A DNA stretch of 64,000 nucleotides from an uncultured Candidatus Saccharibacteria bacterium (GTDB lineage: Bacteria; Patescibacteriota; Minisyncoccia; Phycocordibacterales; UBA918), in assembly GCA_964350985.1 (NCBI GenBank), contig CAYGLK010000002.1:229406-293405 (forward strand). The letters are read 5' to 3'. Of the stretch, positions 12,718 through 26,745 are shown one piece after another. Position 1 is the stretch's first letter, and every line of letters begins with the position of its first letter. Under the pieces are notes generated by a model. It had not been told where the DNA came from, did no database searches, and was given only the letters and a program-made list of their open reading frames with translations. A program made the position numbers and the translations under genes.

Positions 12718-13659
12718 ATGAGCATCGCTTTAGTCTACACAATCCAACCCCATGTACTATCCGGAAGTGTTGTCAGAATTGAAGCTGATTTATCTAGAGG
12801 GCTCCATTCTTTTTCTATTGTTGGCTTAGCTGGTAAAGCTATAGAGGAATCCAAAGATCGTATCAGTAGTGCTATCAAACATTCTGGTTTTGAGTCACCA
12901 AAAAGTAAAAACCAAAAGATCACCATCTCTCTTTCTCCGGCTGATTTGAAGAAAGAGGGTCCACTTTTTGATCTACCGATTGCTCTAGCCTATCTAGATG
13001 CAGCCGGAGAAATTTCAATTCCTGAAGATACAATTTTTGTTGGGGAACTAGGCCTAGACGGAGACCTAAGGGCAGTTAGAGGAGTTTTAAATATTGTGAC
13101 AGCCGCCAAAGAAAGTGGTTACTCAAAAATAATAGTTCCAGGAGCAAACGCAGCCGAAGCAGCCTTGGTTGAAGGAATTGACGTCTATGCTGCTAAAAAT
13201 CTAAATGAAGTTATTTGTCACTTAAGTCCTTCCAGACCAGATTTTAAATTACTCACTATTGAGCCATTAACTCAAGTTGATGAAAATAACTGGACTGAAG
13301 GTACTGTAGTTCTTGAGGATATCAAAGGACAGGAAAGTGCTAAGCGAGCACTAGTTATTGCTGCCGCTGGTAGACATAATGTTATCTTGGTTGGTCCGCC
13401 AGGAACAGGGAAGACGATGTTGGCTAGAGCTTTCCAGGGCATTCTGCCACCCTTATCGAGAAGTGATACTTTGGCCGTCACTGCGATTCACTCAATCAGT
13501 GGGCAAGAAATATCTCTAAGTACCAAGCCACCTTTTCGTACTCCGCACCACACTGCTTCACACACCGCTTTAGTCGGAGGTGGAACTAACCCTAAACCAG
13601 GAGAGGTCACTTTGGCACATAAAGGAGTCTTGTTTATAAAGTGTGTCCCACAAAACTAA
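12718..13659 (+). pseudogene. comM: comM/yifB Mg-chelatase-like AAA ATPase, N-terminal part, interrupted by the integrated element
   Basis: Lon-like N-domain plus AAA Walker A 'GPPGTGKT'. It ends '...[19 protein letters not shown]' just before the conserved LDELPEF block. Confidence 0.85.
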
Positions 13660-13660
13660 T
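13621..13660. repeat. attL-like junction (comM side TCTTGTTTAT / element arm AAAGTGTGTCCCACAAAAC)
   Basis: The comM frame diverges here. The element-side arm is the inverted complement of the arm at the right junction. Confidence 0.6.
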
Positions 13661-13661
13661 T

Positions 13662-14036
13662 TTACGGATTACAGTTTAAATACCTGTATGCACGAGGACC
13701 ATCGCCAAAAGCCATTGTGATTTTCTTGTTCATATACTTATCTCGCACCTCTTTAGGTGCAATTTTGCCTTCGAATTCCCATTTTGTAGGTTCAAACTTA
13801 TTTTTTTTCCAGCTATCTATAATAAATACACCCTTGACTCTATTCTGGTAAATAGCCAGTGCGTATTCTGCCAAATCTCTTGACTCCCAATTATTGCCGA
13901 CATCCCATGCTTGTTTGGCTATATCATAAATAGTATTCTCATCTCCGTCCATATATGGCTTATAGGTTTGAGCGATACTCACCAGAATCACCCTATCTTC
14001 TATGTCTTCCATCCTAATTTCTGTGAGAGCTTCCAT
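13662..14036 (-). CDS. hypothetical protein (element cargo)
   Basis: 124 aa, no recognisable motif. Its stop lies 2 nt from the comM' stop. Confidence 0.45.
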   Translation of the reverse strand: MEALTEIRMEDIEDRVILVSIAQTYKPYMDGDENTIYDIAKQAWDVGNNWESRDLAEYALAIYQNRVKGVFIIDSWKKNKFEPTKWEFEGKIAPKEVRDKYMNKKITMAFGDGPRAYRYLNCNP

Positions 14037-14223
14037 ATTTTCATTGTAGCAATCATCTAGAACAAAGTCATTTAAGAATACGCTACAATCATTAGAATGG
14101 TTTCAAAACTAAGAGCATCAATAATTATAGTAATTGTAGGTATAGTGTCTTTCTGGCTAGGAATGCAGGCTGTGATTCAAGTTCCTTGTGATTGTATTTC
14201 TAGGTTTGCACTGCTATAGAGTT

Positions 14224-23944: not shown

Positions 23945-23945
23945 T

Positions 23946-24989
23946 ATGACTCCAGATACACAAAAGCAGTTAAAAAAATATCCAGGCACCCGTTTTATGG
24001 GTAGTAAATATAAAGTACTACCAGAAATAGAGAAAGTATTAGCTGACTTGGAATTTGATACAGTACTCGATGCTTTTTCTGGAAGTGGTTGTGTCTCATA
24101 TCTGTTCAAAACGATGGGAAAAGAGGTTCATAGCAATGACTTTATGAAGTACTCGCACAGCACATCTAAGTCTCTCATTGAAAATAGCGATTTTCTCTTA
24201 AAAAAAAGTGACATTGAGTATATTACTGCTATAAACAGCAAGAGTAATTTCATTTCAAAGAAGTTTAAAGACTTATATTTTAGTGACGAAGATAATAAAT
24301 TTCTAGATTCTGCTTTTAGTAATATACACAGCATTAGAAACCCTTATAAAAAATCAATGGCTTTAGCTTCAATCTCAAGAGCTATGATTAAACGTAGACC
24401 AAGAGGTGTGTTTACATACGTAGGTAATAAATTTGATGACGGTAGAAAGGATTTAAATCAAAGTCTTGAACAACACTTCATCGATAATGTCGCTATTTTT
24501 AATAACGCAGTTTTTGATAATGGCAAAGAAAATTACTCATATCATGGAGATATTTTCAGTCTTGAATTAGAAAAACAAATGGACCTTGTTTACATGGATC
24601 CTCCATATCTATCAAAAAGTTCTGATAATGATTATGTGCGTCGATATCATTTTGTAGAAGGTTTTGTTGATGGGTGGAAAAATGTTGAAATTGACGAAGC
24701 TACAAAAACAAAAAAGTTTCCTTCGTACAAATCCAGATTTGGTTCAAAAAAGACAATAGACTTAGCTTTCTTTGACATCTTTAAAAAGTTTGAGAAAAGT
24801 AATATCTTGTTATCCTATTCATCAAATTCAATACCAGACAAAGATACTTTGATCGAGATGCTGGCAAAAACTCACAAAACAGTTAATGTATATGAGATAG
24901 ACCATGTCTACTCTTTTGGTACTCATAGTCACAAGAAAAATAACACCACAAACAGAGTCAAAGAATACTTCTTCTTAGCAAAACCTTAA
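23946..24989 (+). CDS. second N6-adenine DNA methyltransferase (D12-class-like)
   Basis: 'FMGSKYKVLPEI', motif I 'DAFSGSGCV' and motif IV 'VYMDPPY'. Confidence 0.7.
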   Translation: MTPDTQKQLKKYPGTRFMGSKYKVLPEIEKVLADLEFDTVLDAFSGSGCVSYLFKTMGKEVHSNDFMKYSHSTSKSLIENSDFLLKKSDIEYITAINSKSNFISKKFKDLYFSDEDNKFLDSAFSNIHSIRNPYKKSMALASISRAMIKRRPRGVFTYVGNKFDDGRKDLNQSLEQHFIDNVAIFNNAVFDNGKENYSYHGDIFSLELEKQMDLVYMDPPYLSKSSDNDYVRRYHFVEGFVDGWKNVEIDEATKTKKFPSYKSRFGSKKTIDLAFFDIFKKFEKSNILLSYSSNSIPDKDTLIEMLAKTHKTVNVYEIDHVYSFGTHSHKKNNTTNRVKEYFFLAKP

Positions 24990-24991
24990 AT

Positions 24992-26713
24992 ATGTCAAAA
25001 GTCTGGAATATTGGAAATACAACAGTTAGAAATCCTAAAAGGATTGAAATGGGTCTGAGAGTCATGAACGAGCAGAACCTTTTTGGTTGTATGGAGGGAG
25101 CTGAAAATGAAGAAGCGTTAACAAAGGCATTAGTAGATTCTGGAGTTGTAGATTCTAAATCTGAGGGTAAAAGTGCAGCATGGTTAGGTAGAAAATGGAG
25201 GAGTGTAATGGTCAAACTTGGCTTCTTAACTAGCAATAAATATAGGATTCAAGGAAAGACATTTAAAGTAGAAGATCTGGAGGGTTACACTAGTTTTTCA
25301 AAATCTCCATATGTATTGACGCCAGCAGGTCAACGCATGGTTAGCTCTACTACACAGGGTGAGGTTAGTGACGTATTTCTTAAGCAAATGATTAAGCATG
25401 CAGTTCCTAACCCTTCAGAAACAGCTAGGGATTTTGACTCGCACATAAAACCGTTCATACTTTTCTTATCTGTATTGAGATCGATTCAAAATGAAGGTAA
25501 GGGTCTAAACCAAAAGGAGATTGCTATTTTTATACAAAAGATTCAGCCTCACAAAGAAGGTTTGTCAGAAGTAATAGTGAAAGAAATTTTAGATTATCGA
25601 GAGAAAAGAGATGCACTTGATTCCAAAAGAACTAAGAGAGAATTTGACCAAAGTTTACTAGAAAAAAATGCAGAAGAAATGTCTATTAAGTCTACTACTC
25701 CATTAGACTATGCTGACACTACAATCAGGTACTTCTCGATGACAGGTCTGTTCGAAATGATTGGAAGCAGAGTAAATATTAAAGAAGAAAAGAAAGATTT
25801 GGTTGATGATATATTGGAATCAACTAGCATTGAAAATATATTAACCGGTGTTGATTACCTAAATGCTTTTTACGGAAATATACCTGTTGTTAAAAATGAG
25901 GAAGTTTCTGCCAGAAAAGAGTACTCCAGTCTTCTTAGAAAAGCCAAAGCATTTGATTTAAAGTTACCTACTATTGAAGTTGATCCAACTTTGGAGGAAC
26001 TAAAGACCGTAACTTTTAATCTGGAAGAACAAATACTATTAGCGGTTGAAGATAAATTTGCCTTAGAACAGCAAACAGATATTGAGATAGAAAAAATTAA
26101 ATACCATATATCAAAAATAGCTAATAAAGACAGGGATTACTTTAGATCAATCGTAGATATGCCAGCAAACTTGGAGTGGGTGGTATGGAGAGGGTTTCTT
26201 TCGATTGACCACATTACTTGTCCCATTCAGGAAACAAGAGGATTTCCTGTAGATGCAGATCTTAAACCTCGATATCCAGCACCTGGAGGAAGAGCAGATA
26301 TGCTCTTTGAATTTGAAGATCATTATCTTGTAGTTGAGGTTACCTTGACTACATCAACGAGACAATATATTGCTGAGTGTGAACCAGTTAGGAGACATGT
26401 TGCTGAAGAGAGAGGAGGTAAGCCAGTATATGGACTATTTATTGCTCCTAGTTTGGATAATAATTTCCTACACGGGTTAAGAGAGTACTATAAAGGTGAC
26501 GATCTAGTTCAACTGAAAATTCTTCCTTTGACCCTAAACGATTTTGAAACCATTATTGATCTTCATAAGACCAGTAAACTGAATCCTTCAGATATTAAAG
26601 AGTTAGTATTAAAGGGGTCTGATGAGAAAATTACAAATGCTATTGAATGGAGGCAACACATTCAGGATACACTTGCTGGTTGGGTATCTGAAAGAACAAA
26701 AGAAGTTGTATAA
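24992..26713 (+). CDS. putative Type IIS restriction endonuclease, AlwI/BstNBI/PleI family
   Basis: 573 aa lying directly after two m6A methyltransferases. Blocks 'TTIRYFSMTGLF', 'LEWVVWRGF', 'GGRADMLFEFEDHYLVVEVTLTTS', 'EPVRRHV' and 'LFIAPS' match recalled conserved blocks of the AlwI family. This rests on memory, not a search. Confidence 0.55.
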   Translation: MSKVWNIGNTTVRNPKRIEMGLRVMNEQNLFGCMEGAENEEALTKALVDSGVVDSKSEGKSAAWLGRKWRSVMVKLGFLTSNKYRIQGKTFKVEDLEGYTSFSKSPYVLTPAGQRMVSSTTQGEVSDVFLKQMIKHAVPNPSETARDFDSHIKPFILFLSVLRSIQNEGKGLNQKEIAIFIQKIQPHKEGLSEVIVKEILDYREKRDALDSKRTKREFDQSLLEKNAEEMSIKSTTPLDYADTTIRYFSMTGLFEMIGSRVNIKEEKKDLVDDILESTSIENILTGVDYLNAFYGNIPVVKNEEVSARKEYSSLLRKAKAFDLKLPTIEVDPTLEELKTVTFNLEEQILLAVEDKFALEQQTDIEIEKIKYHISKIANKDRDYFRSIVDMPANLEWVVWRGFLSIDHITCPIQETRGFPVDADLKPRYPAPGGRADMLFEFEDHYLVVEVTLTTSTRQYIAECEPVRRHVAEERGGKPVYGLFIAPSLDNNFLHGLREYYKGDDLVQLKILPLTLNDFETIIDLHKTSKLNPSDIKELVLKGSDEKITNAIEWRQHIQDTLAGWVSERTKEVV

Positions 26714-26745
26714 GTTTGTGGGACTCTTCTTATGGATGAGTTTCC
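26700..26745. repeat. attR-like junction (element arm AAGTTTGTGGGACTCTTCTTAT / comM side GGATGAG)
   Basis: The comM frame resumes at ATG 26732 ('MDEFPEF'). TTTGTGGGAC is the inverse of GTCCCACAAA at the left junction. Confidence 0.6.

Follow-up and report, generated by a model that had tools for sequence, protein, structure and literature searches.

In the accessible portions of the survey of Durrant et al. (2022; PMC10083194), homologues of the Mg-chelatase/ATP-dependent protease (ComM/YifB) are the most enriched target of large serine recombinases (LSRs), accounting for 12.4% of the predicted site-specific LSRs, and competence genes are enriched among the LSR targets. The latter enrichment may offer a reason for the choice of comM as a target. 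ComM is described, in the available parts of the literature, as the branch-migration helicase of natural transformation, and it has been argued, in the parts of two further papers available to us, that elements break competence genes to avoid deletion by incoming DNA (PMC4774983, PMC11441513). Here we describe an interrupted comM gene in a stretch of 64,000 nucleotides (hereafter the window) from an uncultured Candidatus Saccharibacteria bacterium (assembly GCA_964350985.1, contig CAYGLK010000002.1, positions 229,406 to 293,405). It is probable (we put it at about 85%) that positions 13636..26731 of the window constitute an integrated, non-viral, probably self-replicating genomic island in a Patescibacteria (Parcubacteria/Paceibacteria-like) genome, placed there by its own LSR and bounded by hybrid attachment (att) sites. 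An earlier inspection of the same letters (the original prediction) had called comM a known integration hotspot, a claim that the published proportion makes stronger than was implied. The split gene itself is of lower novelty, because LSR targeting of Mg-chelatase/comM homologues has been published; no description of a comM-targeting LSR element in Patescibacteria was found in the literature searched.

The two parts of comM flank the island:

12718..13635, + strand: comM 5' fragment, codons 1-306, ending ...AHKGVLF; Pfam ChlI (Lon-like) and Mg_chelatase

26732..27328, + strand: comM 3' fragment, codons 307-504, beginning at Met; Pfam Mg_chelatase and Mg_chelatase_C

The 13,096-bp insert (13636..26731, one AT copy counted) cuts comM, a gene of the YifB family, after the GVLF codons of the Walker B motif; the break had originally been placed before the conserved block GVLFLDELPEF, and it lies within that block. 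On the N-terminal side the open reading frame (ORF) runs on into the element, with a stop at 13659 (IKCVPQN*). On the Pfam Mg_chelatase profile (207 positions) the N-terminal fragment occupies positions 2-115 and the C-terminal fragment positions 112-206, so the two are contiguous. The rejoined product, of 504 aa, scores 504 bits with TIGR00368 (YifB family; cutoff 362) and its full length can be aligned with that of intact 503-505-aa homologues, among which the best shares 86% identity. It contains the full ComM domain set (Lon-like ChlI, AAA+ Mg_chelatase and Mg_chelatase_C, in ~500 aa), with the domains split over both fragments. Taken separately, the N-terminal fragment shares 60-78% identity with the corresponding part of the intact ComM of loci L001-L025, and the C-terminal fragment is 50-83% identical to the C-terminal parts of intact ComM.

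A scan covering one genome per species revealed 80 related loci with a continuous comM, nearly all of them labelled as members of the Patescibacteria group; the closest of these intact loci are 77-80% identical. The 25 closest were checked for synteny, and the order of genes is that of a 552-aa protein, a DksA-like protein, comM and an M23/LysM peptidase. The attB site that had been predicted (GGAGTCTTGTTTATGGATGAGTTTCC) is present as exact DNA in one of them (L025). Since the comM fragments are contiguous on the profile, and since relatives carry an intact, syntenic comM, the 13.1 kb between the fragments is an insertion, in agreement with the original prediction. The empty-site search in related genomes that it had suggested succeeded in part: uninterrupted loci were found in number, with the same flanks in the 25 closest, but none from the same species. 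We infer that integration inactivates ComM. A different arrangement was observed in L001 (Parcubacteria bacterium OLB19, 7513-9847), where an intact comM is followed by two membrane/unknown ORFs (142 and 446 aa) and, 2.1 kb downstream, by a second copy of the last 68 comM codons. This suggests a different type of insertion, at the 3' end of comM, which carries or duplicates the gene end.

Both ends of the insert show the geometry expected of serine-integrase products, i.e. attL = B-O-P' and attR = P-O-B' with imperfect inverted arms, as had been proposed:

13610..13665 (unstranded): attL; B arm ...AAAGGAGTCTTGTTT, centre AT (13636-13637), spacer AAAGTGT, P' motif GTCCCACA (13645-13652)

26710..26760 (unstranded): attR; P motif TGTGGGAC (26717-26724), spacer TCTTCTT, centre AT (26732-26733), B' arm GGATGAGTTTCCTGAA

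The crossover is the dinucleotide AT, which forms the first two bases of the Met codon preceding the Walker B Asp-Glu. Immediately inside the element the left junction reads AAAGTGT-GTCCCACAAAAC and the right junction AAGTTTGTGGGAC-TCTTCTT. The end arms contain a perfect 10-nt inverted repeat (TTTGTGGGAC) and match at 15 of 22 positions in a hand comparison, and their sequences are as quoted in the original prediction. An exact inverted repeat of at least 10 nt was found in 33 of 20,000 random pairs of window segments, which makes that of the island rarer than expected by chance; this junction-specific test was used instead of a generic repeat finder, which did not place the terminal inverted repeat among its 25 longest. 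The sequence TCTT(G/C)TTTAT, which had been put forward as a core shared by the two junctions, is not a common core, because the right junction (TCTTCTTAT) has one T fewer than the left. Joining of the outer and inner arms gives an attP of TGTGGGAC-TCTTCTT-AT-AAAGTGT-GTCCCACA and an attB of GGAGTCTTGTTT-AT-GGATGAGTTTCC (in context, ...AAAGGAGTCTTGTTTATGGATGAGTTTCCT... for attB and ...GTTTGTGGGACTCTTCTTATAAAGTGTGTCCCACAAAAC... for attP).

A stronger test than the random-pair control is the recurrence of the arms at the same spacing in all related elements. Relatives of the LSR were gathered by a protein search, an alignment-based metagenome scan and contig look-ups (a metagenome scan with the single LSR protein gave no matches, and the alignment-based one was needed). 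This yielded 17 distinct elements, including that of the window, and in all loci with enough flanking sequence comM is interrupted at the same codon. The sites follow a common plan, TGTGGGAC-N7-XX-N7-GTCCCACA, in which attL consists of the GVLF codons, XX, 7 nt and GTCCCACA, and attR of TGTGGGAC, 7 nt, XX and (G/C/T)GAYGARTTY... Of 11 elements read at both junctions, every one has the same central dinucleotide (XX) at its two ends. Across 26 half-sites (13 attL and 13 attR junctions), the counts of the predominant base at positions +8 to +15 are G 26, T 26, C 25, C 22, C 24, A 21, C 25 and A 26. Elements measured between both junctions are 9.3-14.6 kb in size, and one further element (L117) exceeds 13.5 kb, its left end not being reached. 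An assembly chimera was rejected as a source of these junctions, the same plan being present across 17 elements from many samples and assemblies.

The host B' arm partly mimics the half-site of the element at the same spacing. In the attR of L102 (15704) it reads TTCCCAGA, with 6 of 8 matches to GTCCCACA and a score of 6.6 with a position weight matrix (PWM), and in the window (26734-26749) it reads TTTCCTGA; a likeness to the integrase-binding motif is thus built into the conserved sequence that encodes DEFPEF. Exact TGTGGGAC-N16-GTCCCACA palindromes were also observed in eight viral contigs of IMG/VR (L106-L113, about four distinct sequences). These were treated as unrelated, because the fetched DNA contains no homologue of the window LSR, and they could have arisen by chance or serve other, unrelated recombinases.

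The enzyme predicted to act on these sites is encoded within the island, together with a small upstream ORF:

16838..18613, - strand: LSR, 591 aa, intact; PF00239 and PF07508

18597..18770, - strand: 57-aa ORF directly upstream of the LSR; position kept in the family, no PHROG match

The identification as a 591-aa LSR, made originally from the translation, is borne out by domains and fold. PF00239 is matched over residues 18-170 (E 6e-37) and PF07508 over residues 192-315 (E 3e-17), and residues R23 and S25 (YLRVSTDEQ) are invariant in 38 homologues, the other invariant columns of the family also being present. A phmmer search matched SprA of SPbeta (9dxh) over residues 34-527, and the match to the catalytic domain of the TP901-1 integrase has an E value of 1e-17. 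The AlphaFold model (mean pLDDT 81) aligned by Foldseek over 587-607 columns with full-length SprA chains, and also with the Bxb1, PhiC31 and LI integrases. In this model a helix (133-166) precedes the PF07508 domain, and beta-strands (333-386) are followed by long helices (387-523).

ORFs of 51-60 aa occupy the place equivalent to that of the 57-aa ORF in L081, L082, L098, L100, L101, L102 and L104, and the 57-aa product is a candidate accessory or directionality factor. In many relatives, directly upstream of the LSR gene and overlapping it, there is an ORF of 139-160 aa with a match to the resolvase catalytic domain only, whose product may be a partner subunit or a regulator; the window does not contain it:

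L081, 9577-9996: resolvase-domain ORF

L100, 9585-10004: resolvase-domain ORF

L102, 9566-9997: resolvase-domain ORF

L104, 9538-10020: resolvase-domain ORF

The central dinucleotide differs among the elements and always coincides with bases 1 and 2 of the codon that precedes Asp-Glu. Nine elements have AT (codon ATG), three CT (CTC/CTT), three TT (TTG) and two GT (GTC/GTT). In serine integrases the central dinucleotide alone sets the polarity of recombination. All eight elements with CT, GT or TT centres are parallel to comM, and those with AT are found in both orientations: the window element and L087 are antiparallel and the seven others parallel. L084 has an AT centre, the MT1 protein (59%), the 223-aa ORF (75%) and the same internal gene order as the window, yet lies in the opposite orientation to comM. 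The occurrence of AT elements in either orientation agrees with a palindromic AT centre and a polarity set by the dinucleotide. L082 is antiparallel as well; its junction on the side of the comM N-terminal part (~10205) reads TTC-AC-aaaacat-GTCCCACA, where AC on the comM sense strand corresponds to GT on the LSR strand, and its other junction is off the contig. An Ala codon (GCC) was seen at the crossover position in one intact locus (L014), and a site of the GC class would fit it.

We also searched the elements with a PWM derived from the 26 used half-sites, with the condition that the two halves be inverted and separated by 16 nt. One to five extra internal paired sites are present in each element for which sequence downstream of the LSR gene is available. 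Of such sites, the 80 comM loci free of an element contain none in 883,213 nt, and the host DNA of the window contains one in 51 kb. Counted from the LSR stop codon round the circle, their centres come in the order CT, GC, GT, TT, AT (L088, L100, L101, L104, L099, L087). A site that is internal in one element is used in another: L100 uses 'TT aaagtca GTCCC', which is internal in L101, L104 and L088; L099 uses 'AT gaaaaca', internal in L100; L082 uses 'atgtttt GT', internal in the window; and L089 uses a CT-class site ~1.4 kb past the LSR. Within one LSR clade (74-82% identity) AT, TT and CT sites are all in use. Three elements fetched after the matrix was built fit the prediction from an ordered row of sites:

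L115: AT used (3465); others are CT (1652), GC (2420), GT (2469) and TT (3215), all in nt downstream of the LSR stop codon

L116: GT used, by a GTT codon; CT and GC precede it

L117: conserved CT-class site used, by a CTT codon; GT, GC, TT and AT lie ~8-10 kb away at the other end

The window contains two internal sites:

14957..14988 (unstranded): attP-like site, GT on the LSR strand; TGTGGGAC-attatct-AC-aaaacat-GTCTCTCT; PWM arms 12.5 and 3.9 (one degenerate)

15073..15104 (unstranded): attP-like site, TT on the LSR strand; TCTAGGAC-aggtact-AA-aacacct-GTCTTACT; PWM arms 10.0 and 2.2 (one weak)

The first is identical in spacer and centre ('atgtttt GT') to the site used by L082, and the second is homologous to an internal site of L082 (TTTGTAGGAC aggtgtt TT aatacct GTCCCACAAA).

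On balance, we tentatively favour the view that the row is an ordered set of four or five alternative functional attP sites with shared arms and with the centres CT, GC, GT, TT and AT. One integrase lineage would then enter whichever comM allele it meets (Leu, Ala, Val, Leu and Met codons, respectively), palindromic centres would be used either way, and the integrated form would be a circular permutation determined by the site used. That one integrase could enter comM alleles differing at the crossover is proposed because the centres of the row match the codons tolerated before the Walker B Asp-Glu. It is possible, though somewhat less so, that the internal sites are not alternative integration sites at all, but scars of tandem accretion, cassette boundaries, or palindromes bound by the integrase or acting as terminators. 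These alternatives are kept alive because the cargo genes between the sites vary, in the manner of a cassette array; moreover, the attP-like sites are strongly palindromic, and some have a weak arm or a centre (such as TG or GG) that corresponds to no codon for a hydrophobic residue. Two observations count against them, namely that each of four classes (AT, CT, GT, TT) is a real junction somewhere, with matching host codons (ATG, CTC/CTT, GTC/GTT, TTG), and that in L100, L089 and L117, each of which has integrated through a different site, the remaining sites are found at the opposite end, the arrangement required of a circular permutation. No description of natural rows of attP variants in one element was found in the literature searched, and ordered attP-like arrays, of which different members are used in different hosts, look new.

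The remaining contents of the island are as follows:

13662..14036, - strand: 124-aa ORF; partial match to PADLOC PD-T4-3 (E 4e-10, profile positions 132-193 of 256), phrog_5356; no Pfam family

14224..14895, - strand: 223-aa ORF; copies 75% identical in L084 and 43% in L082; no family match

15130..16710, - strand: 526-aa DUF6119 / TIGR04141 'sporadically distributed' protein, cargo; Pfam E 5e-144, NCBIfam E 5e-149

18834..20648, - strand: primase-helicase with PrimPol, PriCT_1 and AAA_25 domains (replication protein), 604 aa; Pfam, and PHROG DNA polymerase/primase families

20605..22656, - strand: three core ORFs of 157 aa, 244 aa and 166 aa, the last with an N-terminal hydrophobic segment (membrane-anchored); no family matches

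22949..26713, + strand: type IIS-like restriction-modification (R-M) cargo; D12 methyltransferase with N-terminal HTH_17, second D12 methyltransferase and AlwI-family endonuclease; Pfam

Read along the LSR strand, the order is a promoter-like site, a LOOT RNA, the 166-aa, 244-aa and 157-aa ORFs, the PrimPol protein, the 57-aa ORF, the LSR, the DUF6119 protein, and the 223-aa and 124-aa ORFs. The R-M cargo also matches the PADLOC models MTase_II and REase_II, so that the replication protein and the R-M system claimed for the interior are both present. Homologues 73% identical to the PrimPol protein adjoin the LSR in L081 and L082, homologues of the three core ORFs occur in the same order in L081-L083 and L086, and the DUF6119 family also fills the slot after the LSR in L115.

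The related elements exchange their replication gene (PrimPol or Rep_O-like protein) and their cargo, which includes Hachiman, an OLD-family nuclease, type IIG and MutH/Dcm R-M systems and toxin-antitoxin genes. The slots listed below contain Hachiman (HamA and helicase), an OLD-family AAA_15/TOPRIM nuclease, an HTH-SocA/Panacea protein and a PIN toxin:

L082, 6662-9622: defence/addiction cargo

L117, 1-1541: defence/addiction cargo

L101, 12591-13289: defence/addiction cargo

L104, 13765-14268: defence/addiction cargo

Judged by its predicted gene content, the family is a carrier of defence genes in Patescibacteria. One member (L098, ~4018-6951) has a 255-nt deletion at attL, which removed the GTCCC arm, when compared with its sister contig L099 (3760-6951), whose junction is normal. 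As a result of this arrangement, the comM 5' fragment of L098 is fused in frame to a type IIG methyltransferase/endonuclease (a 977-aa gene call), and L098 is an example of an element locked in place.

The core operon of the island is headed by an RNA motif:

22696..22832, - strand: LOOT RNA (Rfam RF03000), head of the core operon; 70 bits (gathering 46.4), model positions 1-121 of 121

22883-22855, - strand: promoter-like site upstream of the window LOOT

LOOT is present in 13 elements (that of the window and 12 others), always on the LSR strand, and the 12 further copies score 66-74 bits:

L081, 5287-5402: LOOT copy

L083, 991-1106: LOOT copy

L084, 507-624: LOOT copy

L086, 7167-7284: LOOT copy

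L087, 5063-5179: LOOT copy

L090, 4202-4322: LOOT copy

L100, 6982-7097: LOOT copy

L101, 5585-5703: LOOT copy

L102, 6139-6257: LOOT copy

L104, 5195-5313: LOOT copy

L116, 202-316: LOOT copy

L117, 6467-6588: LOOT copy

In 12 of the 13 elements the motif is upstream of the core-operon ORFs, 47-60 nt from the first of them; the exception is L102, where the called ORF and the end of the RNA overlap. It is preceded by a conserved promoter-like TTTAC-N17-TAYTAT and ACAACTGAATAT (11 copies with flanks read). A 12-nt strand immediately 3' of the region covered by the Rfam model pairs with an internal loop of LOOT (~position 58), and a U-tract comes after it. All 12 pairs are retained, through compensatory changes, in both of the sequence types observed (CCCAUUAUCAGG/CCUGGUAGUGGG and CUCUCCGUGAGG/CCUUGCGGGGAG); a shuffle control gave a mean of 10.4 of 12 pairs, so that the support for this long-range helix consists of its conserved position and the compensatory changes only. 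Together, LOOT and the downstream strand look like a terminator or a regulated leader. No description of a LOOT function was found in the literature searched, where the main text of the source paper does not discuss the motif, and its placement at the head of the core operon of an element family looks new. If confirmed, this would give LOOT a consistent genomic context, at the head of a replication/integration operon, and make its function testable.

The integrated-island reading suggests the following course of events. The attP of the circular form would recombine with the attB of comM by a 2-nt staggered cut and a 180-degree rotation of subunits, and the PrimPol/AAA_25 protein would replicate the circle after excision. 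The island may pay its way with defence cargo, here the type IIS R-M system. Its integration would break ComM, which fits the published view of elements that hit competence genes to escape removal by transformation.

Several points weigh against this reading. (i) The databases contain no empty comM site of the same species, the best intact ComM being 86% identical, and no excised circle or attP junction was found. (ii) No recombination directionality (excision) factor was recognised. (iii) In the LSR, the suggested Pfam check gave PF00239 and PF07508 but not the zinc-ribbon PF13408, and residues 333-386 include no invariant cysteine; because of this, the zinc-ribbon feature is suggested by the predicted fold only. 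(iv) No member of the family was found in IMG/VR. (v) As regards the row of sites, the proposal rests on 17 metagenomic elements; the row of the window, in which both internal sites have one weak arm, may be decaying; and the AC of L082 requires a Thr codon, which is found in none of the ~190 intact homologues with a readable residue; L082, its other junction being off the contig, may represent mismatched or aberrant recombination.

The weak arms of the internal sites and the lack of a same-species empty site could also be read as signs of an immobilised relic, i.e. an island which was integrated by its LSR in the past, no longer excises, and has left comM a pseudogene. Decay does occur in the family, as L098 shows, but the window copy has kept its LSR and PrimPol protein intact, as well as the two att arms and the two comM fragments, and we regard this explanation as unlikely.

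A regulated switch, in which precise excision restores comM and competence and is followed by re-integration, as in the Listeria comK prophage, was the reading put forward in the original prediction; it seems slightly less likely still. Both comM fragments are uninterrupted ORFs, in the window as in related elements, and, as LSRs excise DNA without leaving a scar, excision would yield an undamaged rejoined gene. Intact fragments are, however, equally expected from a recent insertion, and neither an excision factor or induction circuit nor a same-species empty-site allele was recognised. In addition, published work, as far as its accessible portions go, favours the disruption of comM as a block to the removal of the elements themselves (PMC4774983, PMC11441513; PMC10083194).

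It is very improbable that the island is a small prophage, or a satellite that depends on a helper phage for its packaging: phage-inducible islands do combine an integrase, a primase-helicase and short ORFs, no function was recognised for several core ORFs and one relative carries an S24 LexA/CI-like repressor beside the LSR, but Pfam and PHROG scans of the element ORFs of at least 100 aa revealed no homologue of capsid, portal, terminase, tail or packaging-redirection proteins, the measured elements reach no more than 14.6 kb, and IMG/VR holds no family member. The identity of a prophage was rejected on the same grounds, i.e. the lack of virion genes, which the original prediction had noted, and the size of the elements. 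An integrative conjugative or mobilizable element was likewise rejected, no relaxase, coupling protein or type IV secretion system family being found in the Pfam and NCBIfam scans of the element ORFs, although the island may still contain an oriT. The structural points behind the earlier view of a plasmid-like or satellite island rather than a prophage thus hold, and we describe the element as a small integrative, probably replicative defence-gene island.

The island reading implies that reduced-genome bacteria host small, probably replicative, islands with defence genes. The row of sites, if it has the role proposed, would represent in nature what orthogonal att sites are in engineering, and would record an arms race in which two bases of a housekeeping gene are contested. 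It would explain how a strictly site-specific integrase keeps pace with polymorphism of its target, and would provide ready-made sets of orthogonal sites for genome engineering with a single enzyme; the AT elements in both orientations would illustrate in nature that the central dinucleotide alone sets polarity.

Among the known systems, the staphylococcal SCC/SCCmec elements combine an LSR (Ccr) with adjacent primase/helicase-type genes and variable cargo, lack conjugation and capsid genes, and integrate site-specifically into a conserved housekeeping gene. The window island shares this layout of LSR, replication gene and cargo and is closest to SCC in its mode of operation, and the best NCBIfam matches of its LSR are CcrC and CcrB. 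Membership of SCC was nevertheless rejected, since these matches (128 bits for CcrC and 121 bits for CcrB) fall far below the cutoffs of 900 and the target is comM, not rlmH. Unlike SCC, the window insertion breaks its target gene rather than sparing it, and its host belongs to another phylum.

The Listeria phages A118 and phi10403S are complete phages whose serine integrase reportedly splits the competence gene comK, excision restoring the gene in a demonstrated switch ('active lysogeny'). The comK prophage is thus also a case of a serine integrase in a competence gene, and the window element differs from it in having no virion genes. With engineered att variants of Bxb1 and PhiC31, only sites with identical central dinucleotides recombine, and palindromic centres lose polarity. 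The site rows of the present family resemble a natural set of such central-dinucleotide variants, the engineered ones being man-made.

AbaR islands belong to the Tn7-like transposons, encode transposases and have target-site duplications, in contrast to the window island, which is a serine-integrase element. In Acinetobacter baumannii these cargo islands consistently disrupt comM and affect natural transformation, according to the accessible part of the report (PMC11441513). In the prophage WO of Wolbachia (sr1WO group) an LSR integrates into the host magnesium chelatase gene, with portions of the gene on both sides (PMC9203015); WO, whose host is an alphaproteobacterium, is a complete tailed prophage and has structural modules, whereas the window element comprises 13 kb without virion genes. 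The LSR elements of Durrant et al. (PMC10083194) belong to the same enzyme class and target the same gene family as that of the window. They differ in that the host here is a member of the Patescibacteria, and a keyword look-up in the accessible text of that paper did not meet the Met/Leu/Val codon of the Walker B motif, the GTCCCACA half-site plan, the site rows or LOOT. The present island thus adds a Patescibacteria example to the documented pattern of serine integrases breaking comM.

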